The position numbers were made by a program, and so were the translations under genes. Positions 2,054 through 64,000 of a DNA stretch of 64,000 nt are shown in pieces (positions within the stretch are counted from its first letter, which is position 1; each line of letters begins with the position of its first letter). The notes beneath the pieces are model-generated. The model did no database searches. It was not told the DNA's origin and saw only the letters and a program-made list of their open reading frames with translations. Source of the stretch: Patescibacteria group bacterium (GTDB taxonomy: Bacteria; Patescibacteriota; Minisyncoccia; Minisyncoccales; JAHCRE01); NCBI GenBank assembly GCA_020148145.1, contig JAHCRE010000006.1, forward strand, positions 6,368-70,367. The letters run 5' to 3'.

Positions 2054-2904
2054 AATTGATTGAGATTTTTAGAAATCTTTTTAATTTCTTTTTTAACTCT
2101 TAAATTGGTTTCTACGATTGGTTTTAAGTTGGCAATGGCTTTAAATATTTCCTTATCATAAGATATTTTGCCCAAAAATTTTTTGCCAGCCCACTTTTCT
2201 ATTTTATTGCTTAAACTTTTATAAATATCCCACTTATTAATTACTACACCATAAGGAATATTGAAATGATTAACTACTTTCAAAACTCTTTTTAAGTCAG
2301 TAAATCCAGAAGGAGTGGGTTCAGTAATCAGAATAGTAAAGTTTGCTCCCTGTAAAGAGGCAATCACTGGACAGCCGGTTCCAGGAGCGGAATCAATTAA
2401 CATTATTTCATAATTGAATTTTTCTGCTTCTTTTTTAATTTCGGTAACTACTTTACCAGACCCTGATTCTCCCGGATAAAGCTGACCAGAAATTAATGGA
2501 AAACCATATTTTGTTTTTTTAATTCTAATTTGGCCGTTTTGAACTGGTTTCAAAGAAATAGCTTTTTGGGGACAAATAACTTCACAAGCACCACAACCTT
2601 CACATAAAAATGGATTTAGTCGAGGTTTATCATTTACCATTTTTAATGCTTCAAATTTGCAATTTTTAACACAGAGGCTACAGCTATTGCATTTGTTTAA
2701 GTCAATCTCTGGCTTAGCCGAAGTAACCACTGGTAAAGTTTTATCCCATTTTTTTATTCCTCCTAACCAAATAGCTAAATTAGGGGCATCAACATCACAA
2801 TCTACAGCCGTAATCTTTTTCGATTTTCTAAAAAGCATTGCCAAAGCTGAAGTTAGCATCGATTTCCCTACTCCGCCTTTTCCAGAAGCTATAACTATTT
2901 TCAC
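2047..2904 (-). CDS. MinD/ParA-type P-loop ATPase with inserted 2x[4Fe-4S] ferredoxin motifs
   Basis: Deviant Walker A GKGGVGKS. CNSCSLCVKNC and CEGCGACEVICP cysteine clusters. Confidence 0.8.
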   Translation of the reverse strand: MKIVIASGKGGVGKSMLTSALAMLFRKSKKITAVDCDVDAPNLAIWLGGIKKWDKTLPVVTSAKPEIDLNKCNSCSLCVKNCKFEALKMVNDKPRLNPFLCEGCGACEVICPQKAISLKPVQNGQIRIKKTKYGFPLISGQLYPGESGSGKVVTEIKKEAEKFNYEIMLIDSAPGTGCPVIASLQGANFTILITEPTPSGFTDLKRVLKVVNHFNIPYGVVINKWDIYKSLSNKIEKWAGKKFLGKISYDKEIFKAIANLKPIVETNLRVKKEIKKISKNLNQLW

Positions 2905-2909
2905 ATTTC

Positions 2910-3740
2910 TTACAATTTTACTAATTCAAAATCGAGTAATTTCCCTTTTGAATAGGCCTCAACTAATTTTTTTGAATAAGGAATTTCTTTTTCTATTTTA
3001 ATTTTATATTTTTTGGCGATTTTTTGAATTTTCCTTTTATCTCCTAAATTAGCGTGATTCAAAATTATTTTGGCTGGCACCTTGAGTTTTTGGCATAAAT
3101 CCAAAATTAAATTCAAATCATAAGCTCCCATTGGAGTAGGTTCAGTAACAGCGTAAGCCAAATCACAACCCAAAAGAGCAGAAATTACTGGACAATGAGT
3201 ACCGGCAGCCGTATCAAATAAAAGAAAATCTGGCTTATTTTTCCTAACCAGATTTGAAACAAATTTTTTTGTTTTAGTAACTACAGGGCCTGTTTCCTCA
3301 AGGCCCGGTTTGGCAAGACCAGTTACTAGCCAATAGTCTTTCTCAATTTTATTTAAAAAGATTTGACCAATCTCTTCTTTTTTCGGCTGGATGGCTCCGT
3401 GTGGACAAACAATCCAGCAAGCTCCACAAGCTGAACATAGATCTTTAATAAATACTGGATATTTCTCTGGAGCTTGAAAAGCAGCATTATTTCGACAGAT
3501 TTCGACGCACAAACCACATTTTTTACATTTTCTTTTATTTAATTTTGGGAATTCAGCATAAACTTTCTTTTTGGATTTTTCTAATTTTTGACCCAATAAC
3601 AAATAATCATTAGGGCACTCCACATCACAATCACAAAGAATAACTTTCTTATCTTCTTTAATTAATTTATTAGCAAATAAGATAGTAATGGTACTTTTCC
3701 CAGTACCACCTTTGCCACCGGTAATAGCAATTTTTTGCAT
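2910..3740 (-). CDS. MinD/ParA-type P-loop ATPase with inserted 4Fe-4S motifs (paralog of 2047-2904)
   Basis: GGKGGTGKST Walker A. CKKCGLCVEIC and CSACGACWIVCP clusters. Confidence 0.8.
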   Translation of the reverse strand: MQKIAITGGKGGTGKSTITILFANKLIKEDKKVILCDCDVECPNDYLLLGQKLEKSKKKVYAEFPKLNKRKCKKCGLCVEICRNNAAFQAPEKYPVFIKDLCSACGACWIVCPHGAIQPKKEEIGQIFLNKIEKDYWLVTGLAKPGLEETGPVVTKTKKFVSNLVRKNKPDFLLFDTAAGTHCPVISALLGCDLAYAVTEPTPMGAYDLNLILDLCQKLKVPAKIILNHANLGDKRKIQKIAKKYKIKIEKEIPYSKKLVEAYSKGKLLDFELVKL

Positions 3741-5684: not shown

Positions 5685-6932
5685 TCACCCCTTCGATCCA
5701 CCAAGACAATGAGCACAGTTATCAAATCCTTGTTTATAAGCATCAATGAGATTGATAAATTTTACTTTATTAGTATTCTTGACTAAATCAAGCCAAGGAC
5801 AGGTATGTTGATGCACCTCCATATGATTTTTGTCCTTATTTCCGATGTATAAAATTTTAGGCCTTTTTATAAATTTTCCCCACACTAAAAGCCAAATTCG
5901 CGCTACTGATTCAACGACATCGTGAAAAACTCGATTAGTAATATCTACAAACTCTTCTTTCCCTTTTCTTTTAATTAATTCTCTTACATCGTCGTATCCT
6001 AATTCTTCATTTTCTGTGTCTTCTTTATCAATCCAAACTCGCGAGAGAGCATAAGATACTCTGCAGATATTAACCATCTCTTTCCATACATCACTATTGC
6101 TTTTCTTAAGTCCGTCAGCACTTGCACTTAATTTATACTTTTTTTCTTTATCTATTTTAATTATAGAATTTTTTGGAAGGTTAAGGACAATATCATCTAC
6201 TGAATCTTTAGAATATTTACCTATCCCTACTATTCTCTCCTCGGGAAAAGATTTATCCCATCTTTCTTCTATCGAAGGATGCAGGCGGGGCGGAATAGGT
6301 CTTATTCTGTTACCTCTATCATAATCTCGATAATCACAATGCAAAGGCATATGGCCATCAGCAATATAATGAGAGAGCATAAAAAAAGTGGTAGCGATTT
6401 GGCGAGCAGAAAAAGTAGGCGATAAAGAAAGACTCTTTATGCTTGCAGCAGACAAATCACACTCATAAGCCTTTCTTCTTTGCTCTCTAAGATAAAAGGC
6501 TAAGGGGAAATCACCAAGTTTCAGCATATCACTAACAGTATGAGTAAGAGCTATTACTCGATCAGGTAAATGTCCTTTCTGTGACCAATAAGATTCATTT
6601 AACACTTTTTCTCCTTCAAGGTATTTCAAACAAAGACGTCTCCCCCGGAGCCTGGATATAAGTTCTTCGTAGGGTACCTGGCTTCGTTTATCTTTTTTTA
6701 TAGAACCTAGAAGTTCTGGGTCATTAGTCTGTTTAAAAATATGGCCATACTGCATATCGCAGATTAAACTATCAGGAATCCAGGCTCCATTCCATGTATC
6801 AGAAAGATAATAAGAAAGGAGCTCTATTAATTTATCAGTATGATATACATTACCTATTTTACCATTAACGCTAATGTCATCTATAAACTTATAAGCTCGG
6901 AGGGCTATCCAACCATGAGCAGTACGTTTCAT
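5685..6932 (-). CDS. Zn-dependent phospholipase C / S1-P1 nuclease-like protein with C-terminal Ada-type Cys/His metal-binding domain
   Basis: 415 aa. N-terminal AHGWIALRA and SHYIADGHMPLHCD resemble the PLC/P1-nuclease Zn ligand motifs. C-terminus HQHTCPW...AYKQGFDNCAHC. Confidence 0.45.
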   Translation of the reverse strand: MKRTAHGWIALRAYKFIDDISVNGKIGNVYHTDKLIELLSYYLSDTWNGAWIPDSLICDMQYGHIFKQTNDPELLGSIKKDKRSQVPYEELISRLRGRRLCLKYLEGEKVLNESYWSQKGHLPDRVIALTHTVSDMLKLGDFPLAFYLREQRRKAYECDLSAASIKSLSLSPTFSARQIATTFFMLSHYIADGHMPLHCDYRDYDRGNRIRPIPPRLHPSIEERWDKSFPEERIVGIGKYSKDSVDDIVLNLPKNSIIKIDKEKKYKLSASADGLKKSNSDVWKEMVNICRVSYALSRVWIDKEDTENEELGYDDVRELIKRKGKEEFVDITNRVFHDVVESVARIWLLVWGKFIKRPKILYIGNKDKNHMEVHQHTCPWLDLVKNTNKVKFINLIDAYKQGFDNCAHCLGGSKG

Positions 6933-6979
6933 AATTTTTTCCTTTTATATGTTTTTATATTATCGACCTTTTCATTTCT

Positions 6980-6988
6980 ATTCTACCA
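6980..6988 (-). promoter_or_regulatory. Extended -10 TGGTAGAAT
   Basis: Minus strand reads CTCGGGGTTTTCTTTTGTGGTAGAATAG. Confidence 0.45.
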
Positions 6989-6998
6989 CAAAAGAAAA

Positions 6999-7110
6999 CC
7001 CCGAGAAAAACTCTCGGGCGGCGGAAATAAAAATACTGCGGGTAGTGGACGCTGTTAGAACCTATTTTATGAGAACAAAAGAGTATTTTGAGGTGCCGGT
7101 CTTGACCCAT
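6999..7110 (-). repeat. Cassette-junction element copy B (family 1)
   Basis: Hairpin CCCGAGAGTTTTTCTCGGGG at 6999-7018. Core GGACGCTGTTAGAACC at 7047-7062. Confidence 0.8.
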
Positions 7111-7806: not shown

Positions 7807-7862
7807 AGAACTCCTTTCCCCCTTAATTTTTTATCAAAGAACTATCTTATTCTTACACCTTA

Positions 7863-7892
7863 ATTATACTATATAATTTTCTATCTTGTCAA
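7863..7892 (-). promoter_or_regulatory. Sigma70-type promoter TTGACA-18-TATAAT
   Basis: Minus strand reads CTTGACAAGATAGAAAATTATATAGTATAATTA. Confidence 0.5.
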
Positions 7893-7894
7893 GC

Positions 7895-8100
7895 GGCGGC
7901 TCTCAGAAAGACGGGGCGGGGCGGAAATAAAAAAGATAAAATGTGAGGCCTTTCGGTCATCCGAAATGCTCACAAGCCTGCTCGGACTATTGGACGATTT
8001 TAGAACCTTAAGATGGGAAGACGTGTTTAAATATCCTGAGGTTGTATTAGGACAGATGAGGGAATTGTGTAAACGATGCTAGGACCTGATTTATGAGGTT
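7895..8100 (-). repeat. Cassette-junction element copy D (family 2)
   Basis: Core GGACGATTTTAGAACC at 7992-8007. Terminator-like hairpin at 7943-7973. About 80 nt alignable with 8641-8780. Confidence 0.75.
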
Positions 8101-8627: not shown

Positions 8628-8636
8628 ATTATAACA
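8628..8636 (-). promoter_or_regulatory. Extended -10 TGTTATAAT, 8 nt upstream of the ATG (leaderless candidate)
   Basis: Minus strand reads TGTTATAATGTAATAATATG. Confidence 0.45.
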
Positions 8637-8640
8637 CAAA

Positions 8641-8780
8641 CCTAAGAAAAACTATCGGGGGCGGGCGGCTCGGTCTAGCGGACGATTTTAGAGCCTTGAG
8701 ATGGGGAAAGGTGTTTAAATATCCTGAAGTTTTATTAAAACAAACGAGGGAATTATTAGAATTTACCCCAAAAACCTAAA
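8641..8780 (-). repeat. Cassette-junction element copy E (family 2, degenerate hairpin)
   Basis: Core GGACGATTTTAGAGCC at 8680-8695. Hairpin decayed to CCTAAGAAAAACTATCGGGGG. Confidence 0.7.
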
Positions 8781-8800
8781 AGTAGAAAGCATCTCTTCGT

Positions 8801-9913
8801 TTATTTTTGAATATCAATAATTATTCTTACTGGATTTGTTAAGGCGTAGAGATAATATTCAGAATATTTATTTAAAGCTATTGAATATTGAAGTGTTTGA
8901 TCGTCATAAATTTTTTCTTGGACATAAGAAAATACTACCGGATCTCCGATCTCTACAATTTTTCCAATTGATGGGCCAGCGAGATTGTTTCTCATACCAT
9001 TGATTACCACCTCAATCACCTTCGCGCTTGCATAAAGAACAGCCTTAGTAAAAGGAATCGCTTGGGCTTCTGAACCATCGAGTTTCTTTATTTCAAAAAC
9101 AAAACGATAAAATGCTCCGTGATCGCTATATCTAATAGCATTAAGCATTAATCCATCGGTTGGCTCACCTATTGTTTGCGCTCCGCCTTGAAATTTTGCT
9201 TCTTCGCCTTCAAATATTTCTGAAGAAATTTCTAGCACCTTGTTATAAATTTTATTGTATAGTTCAAGATACTTAACGCTAAAATCTACCTCAAAACCTT
9301 CCAAGAGAGAACGGTGTAATTTTATCTGGTTGAAATAATAATCTGCCCTTAGGTGATCCTCTTTATAATAGTGGGCAAAGCCATTAATAAAAAATGAAAT
9401 TACCTGCGTATCAGCTAAAAGGTCATCAGCGCCCGAAAAAAAGAATTCTGGTTCATATCCACACCGTTGGGTAGTATTTTCTAGATCATTAAAAATGATG
9501 CTTTCTGCAATACATACTTTTGTTCGCTGAACTTTCCAACTTCTCAAGTCAGGGGCATCTTGGATTTCTAGCTCTAGATCTTCAAATTTTCTGATAAGTT
9601 CCTGAACTCTATTCTTTATGTCTGTATCTTTAAATTCCAAAGCGTCTAACAAGATTCTATCAGCCCCAACATCATTAAAACTTATCGTTCTTTTTTGAGC
9701 ATATTCTCTTAATATTTCATTAACCCCTTCATCAGACAAAATAACTTGTTGGGCATTAATGCCCTCCTCTGGTTTCTTTATCTCAGGAAATTCAGTAAGA
9801 GAAATCTCTTGTTTTATTACATACCATAAGATTGTTCCAACAACTAAGATGCCTAAAAGTATTACAATTCCAATATAGTTCCAATTAGTTTTACCTTGTT
9901 TAATAAAATTCAT
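8801..9913 (-). CDS. Membrane-anchored extracytoplasmic protein, no recognisable family
   Basis: 370 aa. N-terminal TM helix YIGIVILLGILVVGTILWYVI. Confidence 0.6.
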   Translation of the reverse strand: MNFIKQGKTNWNYIGIVILLGILVVGTILWYVIKQEISLTEFPEIKKPEEGINAQQVILSDEGVNEILREYAQKRTISFNDVGADRILLDALEFKDTDIKNRVQELIRKFEDLELEIQDAPDLRSWKVQRTKVCIAESIIFNDLENTTQRCGYEPEFFFSGADDLLADTQVISFFINGFAHYYKEDHLRADYYFNQIKLHRSLLEGFEVDFSVKYLELYNKIYNKVLEISSEIFEGEEAKFQGGAQTIGEPTDGLMLNAIRYSDHGAFYRFVFEIKKLDGSEAQAIPFTKAVLYASAKVIEVVINGMRNNLAGPSIGKIVEIGDPVVFSYVQEKIYDDQTLQYSIALNKYSEYYLYALTNPVRIIIDIQK

Positions 9914-9921
9914 ATTATCTA

Positions 9922-9927
9922 ATTATA
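9922..9927 (-). promoter_or_regulatory. -10 TATAAT, 8 nt upstream of the ATG (leaderless candidate)
   Basis: Minus strand reads GTTATAATTAGATAATATG. Nearly identical to the leader at 10735-10750. Confidence 0.45.
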
Positions 9928-9951
9928 ACTTAAATCACCCGCAAAACAAAA

Positions 9952-10016
9952 CCCCGAGAGAAAAACTCTCGGGCGGGGCGGGCGGAAATAAAAAAAGAGG
10001 CAGTTGAAACTGCCTT
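9952..10016 (-). terminator. Two tandem terminators (AGGCAGT hairpin plus the shared CCCGAGAG hairpin)
   Basis: AGGCAGTTTCAACTGCCT plus T7 at 9998-10016. CCCGAGAGTTTTTCTCTCGGGG plus T-tract at 9952-9973. Confidence 0.65.
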
Positions 10017-10416: not shown

Positions 10417-10734
10417 CTAATCTGCACAAAGCATTTCTTCTGGGCGTTCGGGATCCCAGAAATAACAACCAGTCCATCTTCCTGAACAGAACCAGTTCTT
10501 TCCATCTTTAGAGATGCAACGCTCATCTTCAGGACAATCGGTGTGTAAGCTACAAGGTTTCTGTGAGTCTGGAGCACAATAAGGACCAGAGAGAGAACCA
10601 AATTTTTTGTATCCTTCGGGACACCGCAAAAGTTTGTAGCGGATTGGTATAAAAAAGGGGGAATTATAGATGAACCATCCACCGATTATAATTATTCCAA
10701 CTATTAAAATGACAATTAAGGTTTTTGTGGTCAT
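10417..10734 (-). CDS. Small secreted/membrane-anchored Cys-rich protein
   Basis: 105 aa. N-terminal TM helix LIVILIVGIIIIGGWFIY, then 8 Cys. Confidence 0.55.
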   Translation of the reverse strand: MTTKTLIVILIVGIIIIGGWFIYNSPFFIPIRYKLLRCPEGYKKFGSLSGPYCAPDSQKPCSLHTDCPEDERCISKDGKNWFCSGRWTGCYFWDPERPEEMLCAD

Positions 10735-10742
10735 ATTATCTA

Positions 10743-10748
10743 ATTATA
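10743..10748 (-). promoter_or_regulatory. -10 TATAAT, 8 nt upstream of the ATG (leaderless candidate)
   Basis: Minus strand reads GGTATAATTAGATAATATG. Confidence 0.45.
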
Positions 10749-10772
10749 CCTCAAATCGTCCGCAAACCAAAA

Positions 10773-10915
10773 CCCCGAGAAAAACTCTCGAGGGCGGGCG
10801 GAAATAAAAAAGCTCCCCCTATTGGACGCATTCAGAACTGTCAATTGGAAAAGAATTAGAGAGGAATTGGAAGAATTAGGGCTTAGTTTAGGGATTCAAT
10901 TAGCTCCTGTAAAGA
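10773..10915 (-). repeat. Cassette-junction element copy F (family 2-like)
   Basis: Hairpin CTCGAGAGTTTTTCTCGGGG at 10773-10792. Core GGACGCATTCAGAACT at 10824-10839. Confidence 0.7.
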
Positions 10916-11268: not shown

Positions 11269-11302
11269 GATTTTAACAGGGTCTGCCCGACATAATCAAA
11301 AA

Positions 11303-11415
11303 CCCCGAGAAAAACTCTCGGGCGGTGCCATGCTGCGGGGCCTGAACGCTATTAGAACCTATTGGCAGTGGACAATGGAATACTCTGCGATACCAGTCTT
11401 TAATAAAATATAAAG
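11303..11415 (-). repeat. Cassette-junction element copy C (family 1)
   Basis: Hairpin at 11303-11322. Core GAACGCTATTAGAACC at 11344-11359. Confidence 0.8.
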
Positions 11416-23216: not shown

Positions 23217-23660
23217 TTAGACTAATTTCTGAGTCTTTGCTCGAATATTGAGAGCTTCATTTACCAGCCTATCGGCCTCTTTATTTTTTTCTCGAGAAAT
23301 GAGTTTAAATTTAACTTTTTTAAAATCAATTTTTAGGTTCCAGGCTTTTAAAAAAAGAGGTTGAATTTTTGAATCTAAAATTTTGAATTGACCTCGCAAT
23401 TGTTTTACTAAAAGCTCTGAATCTGATCTTAATTCGATTTCTGAGTTTTTGGCTAATTTTTTTCCAAAAAGAGCCTTAAATTTTTTCAAAGCAGAAATGC
23501 AAGCTAAATACTCAGCCTCGTTATTTGTAAAATTCTCACCCAAATACTGAGAGTATTTTTTTATCATCTGACCCTTTTCATTACAAAACAAAGCTCCAAT
23601 GGCCGCCGGCCCAGGATTACCCCTGGAACCTCCGTCGATGTAAATTATTATCTTTTTCAT
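23217..23660 (-). CDS. rnhA: Ribonuclease HI
   Basis: Start set at the internal ATG (MKKIIIYIDGGSRGNPGPAAIG...). NNEAEY and the ADRL motif are present. The upstream part of the 214-aa track ORF is read-through of a repeat element. Confidence 0.85.
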   Translation of the reverse strand: MKKIIIYIDGGSRGNPGPAAIGALFCNEKGQMIKKYSQYLGENFTNNEAEYLACISALKKFKALFGKKLAKNSEIELRSDSELLVKQLRGQFKILDSKIQPLFLKAWNLKIDFKKVKFKLISREKNKEADRLVNEALNIRAKTQKLV

Positions 23661-23695
23661 AGGTTTAAAAGTATACTTTATATTAAAATCTGACA

Positions 23696-23846
23696 GTAAT
23701 CCTGGGCCACAGAAAGGGGTCGGGAAAACTGGGTGTTTTCCCGTAGTGGAAGTATTGAAACCGCAAGGTTTCAAGGAGCGAAGCGAAGCCCCGAAGGGGC
23801 GCTCGAGCCGAAGGCGAGAGAGAGTGGAGCGACGGCCCAGGATTAC
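23696..23846 (-). repeat. GC-rich multi-hairpin repeat, family X copy Z (inverted relative to the X1/X2 copies)
   Basis: Bounded by the 13-bp inverted repeat GTAATCCTGGGCC (23696-23708) / GGCCCAGGATTAC (23834-23846). Its reverse complement aligns with 47213-47351. Confidence 0.75.
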
Positions 23847-23886
23847 CTCTTGAGCCTCCATCTATGTAAATAATAATTTTTTTCAT
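23834..23886 (-). pseudogene. Duplicated 5' fragment of rnhA (codons 1-18)
   Basis: ATGAAAAAAATTATTATTTACATAGATGGAGGCTCAAGAGGTAATCCTGGGCC versus the real gene at 23608-23660. 8 differences, all synonymous third positions. Confidence 0.7.
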
Positions 23887-23915
23887 AATTTTTAGATTTT
23901 TTTTCGTGGTGACAG

Positions 23916-47198: not shown

Positions 47199-47212
47199 AG
47201 TGGTAATACAAA

Positions 47213-47351
47213 GTTAATCGCTCGCCCTCTTCCAGCCTTACGGCTGGCGGTCGCCTTCGGCGACCTTCGGGCTCGCTCTTTAAAAACCCTCGGTTTTTAA
47301 TATTTTCCTATACGGGGAAACCGAAGGGTTTCCCCGACCCCCTTCCGATAT
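47213..47351 (-). repeat. GC-rich multi-hairpin repeat, family X copy 1 (rpsD-rpoA spacer)
   Basis: TTAATCGCTCGCCCTCT...GACCCCCTTCCGATAT. Hairpins CCAGCC-TTAC-GGCTGG, GGTCGCC-TTCG-GCGACC, TTAAAAACC-CTC-GGTTTTTAA, GGGGAAACC-GAAG-GGTTTCCCC. Confidence 0.8.
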
Positions 47352-47366
47352 TTCAACGAGATCCTG

Positions 47367-54622: not shown

Positions 54623-55402
54623 TCAAGATTTTTTGACTGCCTTTATTATTTTAATAAATTCTTGAGGATTTAAAGAAGCTCCACCTATTAAAAGACCGTC
54701 CATTCTTGCTTCTTTAATATAGCCTGCTGCATTTTTACTGTTAACGCTGCCTCCGTAAATTATTCGAATTTTCTCAGATATATTACGACTAAAAATTCGG
54801 TTTATAATTTTTCGAATAAGTAAACCCATAATCTGAGCTTCTTTAACATCACAGGGTTTTCCAGTTCCAATTGCCCAAACTGGTTCATAGGCAATTACAA
54901 TATTTTTGATTTCTTTTTTTGAAATTTTTTTAAGTCCTTTTTCAATCTGAGATTTTAAAATATTTTGGGTTTTACCTTTTTCTCGCTCAGTTTTGGTCTC
55001 GCCAATACAAAAAATTGGATTTAATTTTACTAATATCGCTTTTTTCATTTTTTTATTTATCACATCATCGGTCTCACCAAACCACCTTCTTCTTTCGGAA
55101 TGACCCAAAATCACATAATCACATCCTAGATCCTTGAGCATTAAAGATGAAATTTCCCCAGTAAAAGCTCCTTTTTCTTCCCAAAAACAATCTTGCGAGC
55201 CGGAGGCGAGTCCGCCGAAGCCCGCCTTTCGGCGGGCGGAGGTGGAAACTCCTAAAATTGATAAATAAACAAAAGGTGGGCAAATTACCACCTCAATATT
55301 TTTAATATTTTTTATTCTTCTTTTCAGGGAATTAAAAAGTTTCTTTGCTTCAATTAAAGTTTGAGGGTTACACTTCCAATTGGCGACAATTAGTGGTTTC
55401 AT
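54623..55402 (-). CDS. tpiA: Triosephosphate isomerase
   Basis: 259 aa. ANWKCN, GAFTGEIS, GHSERR, AYEPVWAIGTG. Confidence 0.94.
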   Translation of the reverse strand: MKPLIVANWKCNPQTLIEAKKLFNSLKRRIKNIKNIEVVICPPFVYLSILGVSTSARRKAGFGGLASGSQDCFWEEKGAFTGEISSLMLKDLGCDYVILGHSERRRWFGETDDVINKKMKKAILVKLNPIFCIGETKTEREKGKTQNILKSQIEKGLKKISKKEIKNIVIAYEPVWAIGTGKPCDVKEAQIMGLLIRKIINRIFSRNISEKIRIIYGGSVNSKNAAGYIKEARMDGLLIGGASLNPQEFIKIIKAVKKS

Positions 55403-60030: not shown

Positions 60031-60177
60031 ACCTTTTACTTCGTAAAAGAAATATCAAATTCCAAATCACAAATTCCAAATAAATTCAAAATTCCAATGG
60101 CCAAAATTCTAAACAGTTTGTAATTTGAGATTTGGTGCTTGGAATTTGTTTGTTATTTGATGCTTGGTGCTTGGAAT
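60031..60177. repeat. 147-nt imperfect long hairpin filling the rplO-secY spacer (TTCCAA/TTGGAA-rich arms)
   Basis: AAATTCCAAATCACAAATTCCAAATAAATTC... opposed by ...GGTGCTTGGAATTTGTTTGTTATTTGATGCTTGGTGCTTGGAATTT. Confidence 0.6.
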
Positions 60178-61086: not shown

Positions 61087-61524
61087 TTAAAATTTCAATC
61101 CCCCTTCTCTCGCTCCTTCTGCCACTGCCTTCGTTCTCCCGTGATATTTATATCCTCCCCTATCAAATACTACCTTTTTAATTTTTTTCTTAAAGGCTTT
61201 TTTAGCAATTAGTTTTCCTACCTCAAAAGCGATGCCAACTTTTCTTGTTAAGGGTTTTTTAATTTCTTTAGCTTTCGGAGACCCCTCCTGGCGGGAGGGT
61301 GATGGGCTGGCTGTAGCCTTTTTAATTTTTGTTTTTTGTTTTTTTAATTCTAAATCACTAGTTGCAACTAAAATATGGCCTTTTTCATCATCAATTAATT
61401 GAACATAAATATGTTTTTGTGATCTAAAAACACAAAACCGAGGTCTAGTGGCTGTTCCCCATATTTTAGCTCTCACTCGCTTGTGACGTCTAACTTTTTT
61501 CTCACGTTTTATCTTTGTTTTCAT
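61087..61524 (-). CDS. rplR: 50S ribosomal protein L18 (with GC-rich internal patch)
   Basis: 145 aa. [46 protein letters not shown]. Patch at 61271-61318 encodes [16 protein letters not shown]. Confidence 0.93.
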
Positions 61525-62098: not shown

Positions 62099-62113
62099 AA
62101 TATTCTTTTATTT

Positions 62114-62255
62114 AAGCGAGGGAATCAATTTTTATGGACCATCCGCAGCGAGTTGGCATGGTCTCGCCGCAGAGCGGCGAGCAACTCGCGAGGACATGAG
62201 CCTGATCCTCGCTGGGGGTCAGAGCGTGTCCTAAAAATTGGATTCCCGAAGCGCC
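62114..62255 (-). repeat. Long-hairpin (TIR-type) repeat, family Y copy 1 (rpsH-rplF spacer)
   Basis: Arms GCGAGGGAATCAATTTTTATGGAC (62116-62139) and GTCCTAAAAATTGGATTCCCGAAGCGC (62228-62254). GC-rich core. Abuts the rpsH stop codon. Confidence 0.75.
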
Positions 62256-62652: not shown

Positions 62653-62838
62653 TTACCAACTTGATTTTTTAACTCCAGGAATTAATCCCTGATTTGCCAT
62701 TTCTCTAAAACAAATTCGGCATAAACCAAATTTTCTCATATATCCCCTTTTTCTCCCACACCTAAAACAGCGTAAAATTTTTCGAGTTGAAAATTTGGGC
62801 TTTTTCTTAGATTTAACAATTTGAGCTTTTACTGCCAT
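62653..62838 (-). CDS. rpsN: 30S ribosomal protein S14, short Zn-binding (type Z)
   Basis: Start set at the internal ATG 62838 ([13 protein letters not shown]...[20 protein letters not shown]...W). The track ORF start lies inside a repeat element. Confidence 0.9.
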
Positions 62839-62852
62839 TGGTATTACATAAT

Positions 62853-63055
62853 TAATCGCTCGCCCTCTCCAGAACAAAGTTCTGGCGCTCCCCGCCCAGG
62901 GCGGATCGCTTCGGGCTCGCTCTTTAAAAACCCTCGGTTTTTAATATTTTCCTATACGGGGAAACCGAATGGTTTCCCAGATGGGGCTTTCCGACTCAAC
63001 CCGCTTCGCAGGTTTCGCGGAGAAGCCTCGCGCCTTGACCGACCCCCTTCCGATA
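62853..63055 (-). repeat. GC-rich multi-hairpin repeat, family X copy 2 (rplE-rpsN spacer)
   Basis: Same ends as copy 1 (TTAATCGCTCGCCCTCT ... GACCCCCTTCCGATAT) and same central CTTCGGGCTCGCTCTTTAAAAACCCTCGGTTTTTAATATTTTCCTATACGGGGAAACCGAA. About 60 nt of extra hairpins. Confidence 0.8.
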
Positions 63056-63062
63056 TGGGGTG

Positions 63063-63632: not shown

Positions 63633-64000
63633 TTAGATTTCTTTTCCACATTTCTTACATATCCTTATTTTTGATTTCTTATTTTTGCCGCTCGATTTCA
63701 TTGAGCGCCCGCTTCGCCTCGGCGAAGACGAGGCGAGAACCTCCCGCCCACTTAGGCGAGGCTCGCCCACTTTGTGGGCGGCACCTCTTTGAGGCGGGAT
63801 TTTTGATATTACTTTATAACCTATCCTGGTTGCCTTTCCGCATTTTGAACAAATGAGTTTTACATTGGAAACAGGAATAGGGGCCGGCAGTTCTATAATT
63901 TGACCTTTTTCCTCTGTCCTTCTTGGTTTAATATGTTTTTTTCTTAAATTAACTCCTTCAACTAAAAGTTTTTGCTCTTCGGGAAAAGCCTTTAAAACCT
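63633..64000 (-). CDS. rplX: 50S ribosomal protein L24, 3' part (5' end beyond window), carrying an in-frame insertion
   Basis: Own translation: ..LLVEGVNLRKKHIKPRRTEEKGQIIELPAPIPVSNVKLICSKCGKATRIGYKVIS[38 aa]GKNKKSKIRICKKCGKEI*. Stop at 63633-63635. Confidence 0.88.
   Translation of the reverse strand, partial: VLKAFPEEQKLLVEGVNLRKKHIKPRRTEEKGQIIELPAPIPVSNVKLICSKCGKATRIGYKVISKIPPQRGAAHKVGEPRLSGREVLASSSPRRSGRSMKSSGKNKKSKIRICKKCGKEI
63690..63803 (-). repeat. 114-nt GC-rich hairpin-rich insertion, in frame within rplX
   Basis: Encodes KIPPQRGAAHKVGEPRLSGREVLASSSPRRSGRSMKSS. Hairpins CTTCGCC-TCG-GCGAAG and GCCCAC-TTT-GTGGGC. Absent from the L24 sequences I recall (e.g. B. subtilis RVGYKVEDGKKVRV). 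Confidence 0.75.

Follow-up and report, generated by a model that had tools for sequence, protein, structure and literature searches.

A dispersed GC-rich palindromic repeat element as the probable source of an in-frame insert in ribosomal protein L24 of a Patescibacteria genome

The window analysed here, a 64-kb stretch (64,000 nucleotides, nt) of contig JAHCRE010000006.1, belongs to a metagenome-assembled genome (MAG) of Patescibacteria (the candidate phyla radiation, CPR), and its last 3 kb carry, on the minus strand, the spc ribosomal protein (r-protein) operon with the genes for S5, L18, L6, S8, S14, L5 and L24. A sequence-only reading of this DNA had noted a hairpin segment rich in guanine and cytosine (GC) inside rplX, the L24 gene, and had compared it with the Rickettsia palindromic elements (RPEs). 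Our analysis makes it quite probable that this segment represents one copy of a palindromic repeat element that is short, modular, rich in GC and dispersed. This element is built of hairpins, lies in frame and recurs in unrelated genes and genomes: the same element was found in frame in rpoB, and its core in mraY, thrS and intergenic spacers. The comparison with RPEs was therefore supported, as one between analogues only.

By gene order, rplX is flanked by the genes for L14 and L5. Its translation in the window was identical to a protein (P0001) annotated as 50S ribosomal protein L24, the complete form of which has 143 amino acids (aa). The precomputed Pfam domains PF17136 and PF00467 (KOW plus L24 domain) place it in the uL24 family, and PDB uL24 chains matched it at E 2.6e-24 (about 1e-24) over residues 1-86 only. 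The minus-strand frame, which ends in TRIGYKVISKIPPQRGAAHKVGEPRLSGREVLASSSPRRSGRSMKSSGKNKKSKIRICKKCGKEI and a stop codon, is open across the insert, while the whole window has a GC content of 0.353; translation and composition thus bore out the earlier claim of an in-frame, stop-free and GC-rich segment. The boundaries of the insert were set against the closest 'empty' allele, that of locus L011 (comparison loci are given by such three-digit numbers), which reads TCA AAA ATC/AAA AAT CAA AAA TCA AAA, where the slash marks the junction. The insert lies exactly between ATC and AAA AAT of this heptamer tract and encodes the peptide PPQRG...KSSG. An insertion it therefore remained, but its extent, first given as 63690-63803 and 38 codons, was refined to 63687-63797, 111 nt and 37 codons. 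Relative to the 101-aa forms of L24 the excess is 42 rather than 37 codons, because the A-rich heptamer tract is also extra. The features of the region, in the order in which the gene is read, are as follows.

63633 to 64000, minus strand: rplX (ribosomal protein uL24), 3′ 122 codons, from the translation; the gene runs beyond the window end.
63798 to 63806, minus strand: 5′ flank of the insert, TCAAAAATC, codons S-K-I, the same junction as that of the rpoB copy, TCAAAAGTC.
63687 to 63797, minus strand: GC-rich in-frame insert, 111 nt, 37 codons, PPQRGAAHKVGEPRLSGREVLASSSPRRSGRSMKSSG, with three hairpin domains, delimited by alleles without it.
63742 to 63799, minus strand: hairpin domain H1, CCCGCC...GGGCGG enclosing GCCCAC-AAA-GTGGGC, from the minimum free energy (MFE) structure and a three-way alignment.
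63706 to 63739, minus strand: core module H2, TTCTCGCCTCGTCTTCGCCGAGGCGAAGCGGGCG, 34 nt, near-invariant in 17 low-GC loci.
63687 to 63709, minus strand: hairpin domain H3, GGCGCTCAAT-GAA-ATCGAGCGGC, from the MFE structure and the three-way alignment.
63666 to 63686, minus strand: 3′ flank of the insert, AAAAATAAGAAATCAAAAATA, a degenerate (AAAAATC)n heptamer tract, codons KNKKSKI, from allele comparison.

The GC content of the insert is 66.7% (0.667-0.683 in 60-nt windows over 63690-63779), and its region is the longest island of at least 65% GC within the window. The 136-nt segment that was folded reached -60.9 kcal/mol in the sense (z -4.88) and -60.6 kcal/mol in the antisense orientation (z -5.60), and none of 200 dinucleotide shuffles folded as stably; the fold of the insert copy in L002 had a z of -3.05. 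All three hairpins quoted in the sequence-only reading are present in the insert. In the MFE structure domain H2 spans 63711-63740, and the core module can form the stems CGCCTCG/CGAGGCG or CTTCGCC/GGCGAAG. H3 is a perfect 8-bp stem, CGCTCAAT/ATTGAGCG, in the rpoB copy, and in the L002 copy its loop is inverted, with TTC for GAA. H1 holds 39 nt (63745-63783) that are missing from the L002 and rpoB copies and that contain AAGTGGGCG twice, and the three-way alignment revealed that its short form, CCCC-GAA-GGGG, became CCTC-AAA-GAGG in the window copy, a compensatory change. The two ends of the insert, CCCGCC... and ...GAGCGGC, do not form an inverted pair, and terminal inverted repeats were not seen. 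Rfam gave no match for the insert at the gathering score, and a permissive scan of 63640-63860 gave nothing better than E about 0.5.

In a search for L24 homologues 357 proteins matched, the best 120 were listed, 28 were aligned, and the DNA of seven alleles was compared. Among the best 120 of the 357, most are 101 aa and several are 106 aa long, and both forms are without the insert; the 101-aa forms read GYKIV-EKKKFRICKKCG, and the 106-aa allele has the perfect heptamer tract quoted above. In the alignment of 28, the extra residues fall between GYK(I/V)I and K.R.CKKC. The L24 gene of L002 (protein P0002) has a homologous insert of 72 nt at the same junction as that of the window, whereas those of L009 and L005 have at that junction a common 36-nt hairpin unrelated to the window insert. 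A second insert in L005 (42 nt) and the insert in L010 (57 nt) lie one repeat unit further on, and L003 has a 33-nt hairpin in the TCAAAAA tract. All these L24-site inserts are GC-rich, hairpin-forming, stop-free and multiples of 3 in length, and all lie in one TCAAAAA tract. Each of them, like the rpoB insert described below, follows directly, on the 3′ side, a short motif rich in A, ...A(A/T)(A/G)TC at the first site and ...CAAAA(A) at the others.

The L24 genes of L002 and L003 have different inserts although their flanks share 90.6% of nucleotides and 96.5% of amino acids. The flanks of the window and L002 genes are 78% identical (61% at third positions), and over its 3′ 59 nt the window element matches the L002 copy at 86% identity and the rpoB copy at 95%. 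Similarly, the L009 and L005 flanks are 72% identical, with 48% at third positions (essentially saturated), and the 37-nt insert differs at one base (97%). Conservation is far higher in the inserts than at synonymous sites of their host genes; as a neutral segment of 67% GC should decay in an AT-rich genome, this would mean either recent arrival or selection at the nucleotide level. Insert content does not follow the host gene. The L24 segment is an insertion, in a loop that is probably permissive, and not an ancestral extension, and it turns over between close relatives; the orthologue alignment bore out the earlier reading on this point, and a homologous segment of normal AT content across the orthologues, as expected of an ancestral extension, is not what the alignment of 28 showed. 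A lineage-specific ancestral extension of L24, or an assembly artefact, is accordingly the least probable explanation of the segment and largely refuted already. The homologous insert of L002, in a gene with 78% identical flanks, speaks for such an extension, but the 101-aa and 106-aa forms dominate the listed homologues, the closest relative of L002 (L003) has a different insert, and the segment has 67% GC in a genome of 35% GC. As to an artefact, the insert is present in independent ENA and JGI assemblies, and the module in NCBI MAGs.

The same element was found in a second, unrelated gene. A one-genome-per-species scan with the 23-mer TCGTCTTCGCCGAGGCGAAGCGG, the centre of H2, gave nine loci, three of which were chance matches in genomes of 64-75% GC and six of which were in DNA of 34-39% GC; three of these six are contigs of the Patescibacteria MAG CR_Bin_053 and one is from a Paceibacterales MAG. 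In rpoB of CR_Bin_053 (L016:4938-5012, within an open reading frame of 1212 aa), a 73-nt element, CCCGCCCCGAAGGGGCGAGGCTCTCGCCTCGTCTTCGCCGAGGCGAAGCGGGCGCTCAATGAAATTGAGCGGC, lies in frame with the peptide VPPRRGEALASSSPRRSGRSMKLSGK, its frame and peptide being the same as in L24; the two element peptides share ..PP(Q/R)RGE.LASSSPRRSGRSMK.SGK. In rpoB the element is preceded by TCAAAAGTC and, after a terminal GGC, followed by AAAATCCAAAATCC, and in L24 the corresponding sequences are TCAAAAATC and AAAAATAAGAAATC, so that both junctions follow the pattern TCAAAAxTC, element ending in GGC, AAAA. Comparison of rpoB homologues indicated that the element site is a variable loop, and rpoB of Parcubacteria DG_74_2 (L032) has at that spot the same codons as the empty L24 allele, TCA AAA ATC and onward, without the GC core.

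The perfect 21-mer tract TCAAAAATCAAAAATCAAAAA occurred in only two of the fetched loci, namely the empty sites of L011 L24 and L032 rpoB. It was also noticed that at these sites (L011:5259-5286 and L032:2344-2371) a perfect (TCAAAAA)n runs in frame and encodes SKIKNQKSK in loops of unrelated genes. The (TCAAAAA)n tract is either the landing site of the element or a part of it. Matches to the heptamer tract in the window were confined to L24 and L18, three compared with 0.13 expected, and most of the inserts examined at the L24 site have CAAAAAT or TCAAAAA heptamers on their flanks, which are perfect in the window, in both L005 inserts and in L010.

A metagenome scan with the 23-mer added 11 loci. 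A profile of the module separated 17 true low-GC copies (45-51 bits, conserved over about 34 nt) from the chance matches (28-29 bits), which are in GC-rich genomes and match in the 23-mer alone. In mraY (L031) the core is in frame with the peptide ...PASLPASPRRRRGESLSGPASLRLGG..., which gives about 24 aa more than PDB MraY over the interval. In thrS (L015) it is again in frame, ...GISSPASPRRRRGEKAK..., with 39 residues where the Staphylococcus aureus threonyl-tRNA synthetase (ThrRS; 1nyq) has 4, that is, about 35 extra. These two copies are in the orientation opposite to that of L24 and have the peptide ASPRRRRGE in common. All six frames of the module are open as read from its sequence, and the two frames seen in genes encode hydrophilic peptides with many Ser, Pro, Arg and Gly residues. 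The remaining copies (at least 10 intergenic loci) are inside larger GC-rich composite elements or AT-rich hairpin spacers, and CR_Bin_053 has three exact copies of the core, on three contigs. Searches of the fetched loci (blastn-short, nhmmer) gave no further copy of the insert beyond the homologous ones, module words were not enriched in the window in a k-mer test, and viral contigs had 0 matches both to the core 23-mer and to the motif of the type-A element described below.

The copies in rpoB, mraY and thrS contradict a confinement of the sequence to L24 orthologues. The module is sense in rplX and rpoB and antisense in mraY, thrS and intergenic leaders, and its presence in both orientations argues against a strand-specific RNA role. 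This bears on the explanation that the insert is a selected cis-acting structure of the spc-operon mRNA (a stabiliser, an RNase site, a ribosome pause or an autoregulatory r-protein site for L24-to-L5 coupling) housed in a tolerant loop, which we regard as unlikely. Such a structure would agree with the very stable fold (z -4.9), with the position of the insert, 51-161 nt before the stop codon of L24, which the L5 start follows at 9 nt, with the retention of the hairpin by the CCCC/GGGG to CCTC/GAGG change, and with conservation well above that of synonymous sites; moreover, in 7 genomes long in-frame inserts go with short L24-L5 spacers and vice versa. However, an element that is also in rpoB, and whose core has the opposite orientation in mraY, thrS and leaders, does not fit any strand- or spc-specific role. 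At the L24 site itself, most orthologues are empty and others carry hairpins unrelated to the insert; the long spacers between L24 and L5 in relatives consist of AT-rich hairpins dissimilar to it, and no Rfam family matched. In particular, an S8 or L5 autoregulatory site was rejected as the main explanation on account of the rpoB copy and the two module orientations.

As to the protein, four cysteines (C72, C75, C136 and C139) and also K132, R134 and K137 are invariant in the 28 aligned CPR homologues. By this CxxC...CxxC pattern, the L24 of this clade ends in a C-terminal zinc ribbon, with the extra residues at the tip of its beta-hairpin. In an AlphaFold2 model of L24 alone, the core had a pLDDT (the model's confidence measure) of about 90, and the insert, with 50-56 and no secondary structure, was an unstructured loop at the hairpin tip, between strands 81-86 and 131-136. 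Since K132, R134, C136, K137 and C139 follow in frame downstream, the insert must be either read through or removed exactly. With the zinc-knuckle residues in frame and every genic copy open and a multiple of 3, it is most likely that the insert is translated by read-through and that L24 gains a disordered, basic loop of 37 residues.

Removal of the segment, as a small intron, by programmed ribosomal bypass or as an intein, so that mature L24 would be without it, is very improbable. There is a strong hairpin at the 5′ edge of the insert, and the mitochondrial bypass elements (byps) likewise look like GC-rich hairpins inserted in AT-rich genes. But every genic copy has a length that is a multiple of 3 and no stop, including those in three host genes that were found by a DNA pattern blind to frame. 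Furthermore, there is no stop after the take-off codon, no take-off and landing codons matched (junctions ATC/CCG and GGC/AAA), no Rfam intron family matched, and 37 aa are far too short for an intein. In a side comparison covering window positions 63633-63860 (minus strand), the solved bacterial uL24 proteins in the alignments (e.g. 7nhn) were found to be without cysteines at the positions of 72-75 and 136-139.

Another explanation holds that replication slippage or template-switching events (quasi-palindrome extension) made the GC hairpins locally at the slippery heptamer tract. In its favour, this tract consists of tandem 7-nt units, AAGTGGGCG is duplicated within the 39 extra nt of the window copy, the H3 loop differs between copies by an inversion (GAA or TTC), and the second L005 insert starts with CCTGCCCCG, the reverse complement of the end of the first insert, CGGGGCAGG. 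Such a process is plausible for the later growth of a copy but not for its origin: it leaves unexplained the identical 34-nt module and the 73-nt three-hairpin element in unrelated genes and genomes, as well as a 27-nt match (93%) between the L010 insert and a spacer of another genome. As an account of the origin of the segment we consider it improbable.

On the preferred reading, that of a dispersed repeat element, the family would be scattered through genomes of the Patescibacteria clade and be common in intergenic spacers. The element would be tolerated rather than useful, that is, selfish or neutral DNA that did not evolve for L24, and its survival inside essential genes would need a length that is a multiple of 3, an open frame and a permissive surface loop. 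In L24 it sits in the A-rich heptamer tract encoding the hairpin tip of the zinc ribbon, and the ribosome would read through it and add 37 residues rich in Ser, Arg, Gly and Pro. After insertion, the window copy would have kept changing, H1 growing by 39 nt with the internal AAGTGGGCG duplication. Spread presumably took place as DNA. The lack of a clear target duplication, together with the location just 3′ of a motif that is short and rich in A, recalls HUH/IS200-type transposition of single strands, and by speculation the agent might be a hairpin-recognising transposase of this type that acts in trans and inserts 3′ of a short target without duplicating it. With about -60 kcal/mol of structure close to the L24 stop, the insert may plausibly also influence translation or the coupling of L24 and L5.

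More tentatively, the 34-nt module may be an active signal recognised in trans, either a mobile unit of the smallest class or a hairpin bound by a CPR protein. In the first case, a single hairpin would be moved by a CPR-specific hairpin-binding enzyme and spread horizontally among Patescibacteria; in the second, the copies in intercistronic leaders and in the coding sequences of L24, RpoB, MraY and ThrRS would be regulatory or processing sites. The (TCAAAAA)n tracts would then be the specific landing site or the footprint of the module.

Several observations weigh against a dispersed mobile repeat. About 74 kb of this genome, searched with blastn-short and nhmmer, yielded neither the element nor the H2 module a second time; copy number is therefore low, unlike that of classical repetitive extragenic palindromes (REPs). 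Four host genes are known, all of them through one 23-mer. A search of proteins with an alignment of the insert peptide (3 sequences) left 13 candidates, none of which scored, and the insert peptide had 0 matches among representatives of protein clusters at 50% identity, likely because the representatives are without the insert and the query is short and of low complexity. The case for mobility is one of distribution: no transposase and no terminal inverted repeats were identified for the element, the window proteins not having been screened for Y1 transposases. Nor was an unambiguous target-site duplication found at the insert sites, because empty sites (L011, L032) have tandem heptamers of their own and duplicating 7 bp would disrupt the frame; on the same two grounds, a model in which the heptamer tract is the footprint of a 7-bp target-site duplication was rejected. 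The window and L002 copies in L24 could be vertically inherited, and the 95% identity of the window and CR_Bin_053 copies could reflect closely related genomes. Finally, the compensatory change in H1 and the strong conservation are also expected of a selected RNA structure.

Among known systems, the closest counterparts are the RPEs and intragenic REPs. RPEs, reportedly described by Ogata et al. in 2000, are palindromic repeats that lie in frame in a large number of genes unrelated to one another and that each code for a conserved peptide (PMC10969869). Our element resembles them as a short palindromic repeat with a stable fold, in an AT-rich reduced genome, that occurs at several unrelated loci, lies in frame in unrelated housekeeping genes, fuses a conserved peptide of its own into the host protein and has intergenic copies too. 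It differs in being shorter and modular (a 34-nt core plus other hairpins, compared with about 100-150 bp for RPE-1), in its low copy number in the DNA seen, in its association with an A-rich heptamer tract, and in its two orientations, which yield two different peptides. As the host is a Patescibacteria MAG, from a different phylum, analogy to RPEs is claimed and not membership or homology.

REPs with GTAG and CGTC tags have been found within genes of Proteobacteria and other phyla, where they encode 20-80 residues; RPE-4 and RPE-6 are CGTC REPs, and CGTC REPs are without a dedicated REP-associated (RAYT/IS200-type) transposase (Di Nocera et al. 2013, PMC3733652). Like these, our element is a GC-rich imperfect palindrome of 20-40 nt (the core being 34 nt), with some copies genic and most intergenic and probably transcribed. 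In the core, CGTC lies directly 5′ of a palindrome whose first two pairs are A/T (CGTC-TTCGCC..GGCGAA); the window copy, in its MFE fold, has this CGTC at the stem-loop junction of an alternative hairpin. The element departs from these REPs in a stem of 6-7 bp (theirs has 8-9 bp), a loop of 2-4 or 7 nt (theirs has 4-5 nt) and a GCGG instead of a CCA tail, and REPs are not reported in CPR. REPs number tens to hundreds of copies per genome, compared with one in the window plus flanks and three in CR_Bin_053. The short stem, the missing CCA tail and the low copy number are the reasons why the element was not classified as a CGTC REP.

Yeast mitochondrial DNA has GC clusters, including in-frame clusters in the ribosomal protein gene VAR1. 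They are similar in being GC hairpin modules in a very AT-rich genome, in their presence/absence polymorphism and in their in-frame position in an r-protein gene, in an A/T-rich low-complexity coding tract, but they belong to an organelle, not to a free-living or episymbiotic bacterium, and the sequences are unrelated. Bypass elements, known from T4 gene 60 and as the byps of Magnusiomyces mitochondria, are likewise GC-rich hairpin inserts within AT-rich coding sequence; a byp disrupts the frame or contains stops and depends on matched take-off and landing codons, whereas the copies described here are open, in frame and without those signals. Miniature inverted-repeat transposable elements that make in-frame fusions include ERIC, BOX and others (PMC10969869). 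With these the element shares that it is a small non-autonomous repeat readable within host open reading frames, and it differs in that no terminal inverted repeats or clear target-site duplication were found.

The presence of palindromic selfish DNA within the most essential genes of small, streamlined CPR genomes would be unexpected. It would extend the 'selfish DNA in protein-coding genes' of Rickettsia to a distant phylum, which suggests recurrence in AT-rich reduced genomes. A full-text literature search gave no paper tying CPR or Patescibacteria to REPs, palindromic elements or such in-frame insertions, in agreement with the sequence-only reading, which knew of none in CPR. The inserts lengthen marker proteins used in CPR phylogeny, and the length polymorphisms can be mistaken for lineage-specific extensions; they also put very stable hairpins into highly expressed mRNAs. 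A 34-nt sequence that stays near-invariant while host genes diverge to about 75% identity could serve as a handle for finding the enzyme that recognises it or the protein that binds it.

A related, intergenic element, here called type A, has several hairpins and about 165-230 nt: AAATCGGAAGGGGGTCGG..CCGTATAGGAAAATATTAAAAACCGAGGGTTTTTAAAGAGCGAGCCCGAAG..GCCAGCCGTAAGGCTGGAAGAGGGCGAGCGATTAACTTTGTATTACCACT-ATG. This genome has at least 5 clear copies in spacers of the r-protein and rpoA operons and a diverged S10-L3 copy, all without the H2 module. The S3-L16 and L29-S17 spacers are among these, and the following copies were located by coordinates.

62838 to 63062, window: type-A copy in the L5-S14 spacer.
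47199 to 47366, window: type-A copy in the S4-rpoA spacer.
2820 to 3030, 7828 to 8100 and 8701 to 8867, L033: type-A copies.

Type A is always sense to the operon and its end is the start codon of the next gene, ...GGGCGAGCGATTAACTTTGTATTACCACT-ATG. The relative L003 is without type-A elements, and its spacers at these positions are 1-43 nt long. In other CPR genomes (L014, L018, L027 and L029), one hairpin of type A has compensatory changes and the H2 module is optional. Neither type A nor the GC-rich spacers had a match in Rfam, the latter at gathering or permissive thresholds. Type A could be either a new structured RNA or a mobile cassette that supplies a leader or promoter. Type-A copies contain the short H1 hairpin, CCCCGAAGGGGCG, again, as does window position 23789, and the L24 inserts of L009 and L010 share hairpins of 18-27 nt with intergenic spacers of other genomes. 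From the shared hairpins, the spacer copies and the hairpins in r-protein genes, the L24 insert seems to be one instance of a clade-wide population of modular GC hairpins.

Some further observations concern type-A sequences. In CR_Bin_053 a partial type-A element with the H2 module (L017:5511-5867, minus strand; 5870-6030) abuts the 5′ end of the tmRNA gene. In a Paceibacterales MAG (L018:5356-6186) the stop-to-stop frame of L4 runs into an adjacent type-A/H2 element and terminates in ...PPASPRRRRGEKADRQKPRVSGERARMASD; if genuine, this would be an element-encoded C-terminal extension. In the window at 23560-23900 (minus strand), the first about 63 nt of the RNase HI gene (MKKIIIYIDGGSRGNPGP) are duplicated, with 83% identity, on either side of an about 160-nt GC-rich element resembling a reversed type A; of the two copies, the one upstream stops after entering the element, and the one downstream forms the start of the intact gene.

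Other hairpins were noticed in coding sequences. Further GC hairpins lie in frame in r-protein genes of related genomes; one of them, a perfect 30-nt GC hairpin, TCCGCCGAAGGCGAGGCTCGCCAAAGGCGG (73% GC), adds SAEGEARQRR in frame to S8 of L003 (L003:6399-6428), and its GGCGAG/CTCGCC palindrome recurs in the window L24 insert. In L18 (window 61268-61346, minus strand) a loop about 30 aa longer than in the 115-aa orthologue of L010 contains the GC-rich hairpin CCCTCC-CGCCA-GGAGGG directly after the A-rich 7-mer repeat AAAAAAC AAAAAAC AAAAATT, and may be a second, smaller in-frame insert in the window. The triosephosphate isomerase (TPI) gene has the hairpin GCCCGCC-GAAA-GGCGGGC inside the coding sequence STSARRKAGFGGLA (55185-55255, minus strand); as a second in-window insertion it was rejected, PDB TPIs differing by at most 6 aa there, in a variable loop.

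Further structured spacers were found as well. The S8-L6 spacer holds an about 150-nt element of about 50% GC and -56 to -63 kcal/mol (window 62099-62255, minus strand; L003:6615-6775; L005:4737-4926), conserved in the three genomes with both sides of its stems changed, for example GGGAATCCAATT../..AATTGATTCCC vs GGGAACACAATT../..AATTGTTTCCC. In L010 the position has 55 nt only, and no Rfam family matched the element, which is a candidate r-protein leader. Long AT-rich hairpins with CAAAAT- or CGAATA-type repeats are in the L24-L5 spacers of relatives (L009:574-652, L003:5352-5441 and L011:5322-5434) and in a window spacer (60046-60158). They look like a second class of palindromic spacers, some of which carry the H2 module (L021, L024). 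Finally, direct-repeat families with the hairpin AAACCCCGAGAAAAACTCTCGGG and conserved flanking blocks occur at 1615-1717, 6955-7079, 8631-8754, 9910-9978, 10731-10838 and 11294-11376, and with their spacing of 0.5-5 kb they look like upstream or terminator regions that recur along a tandem gene family.

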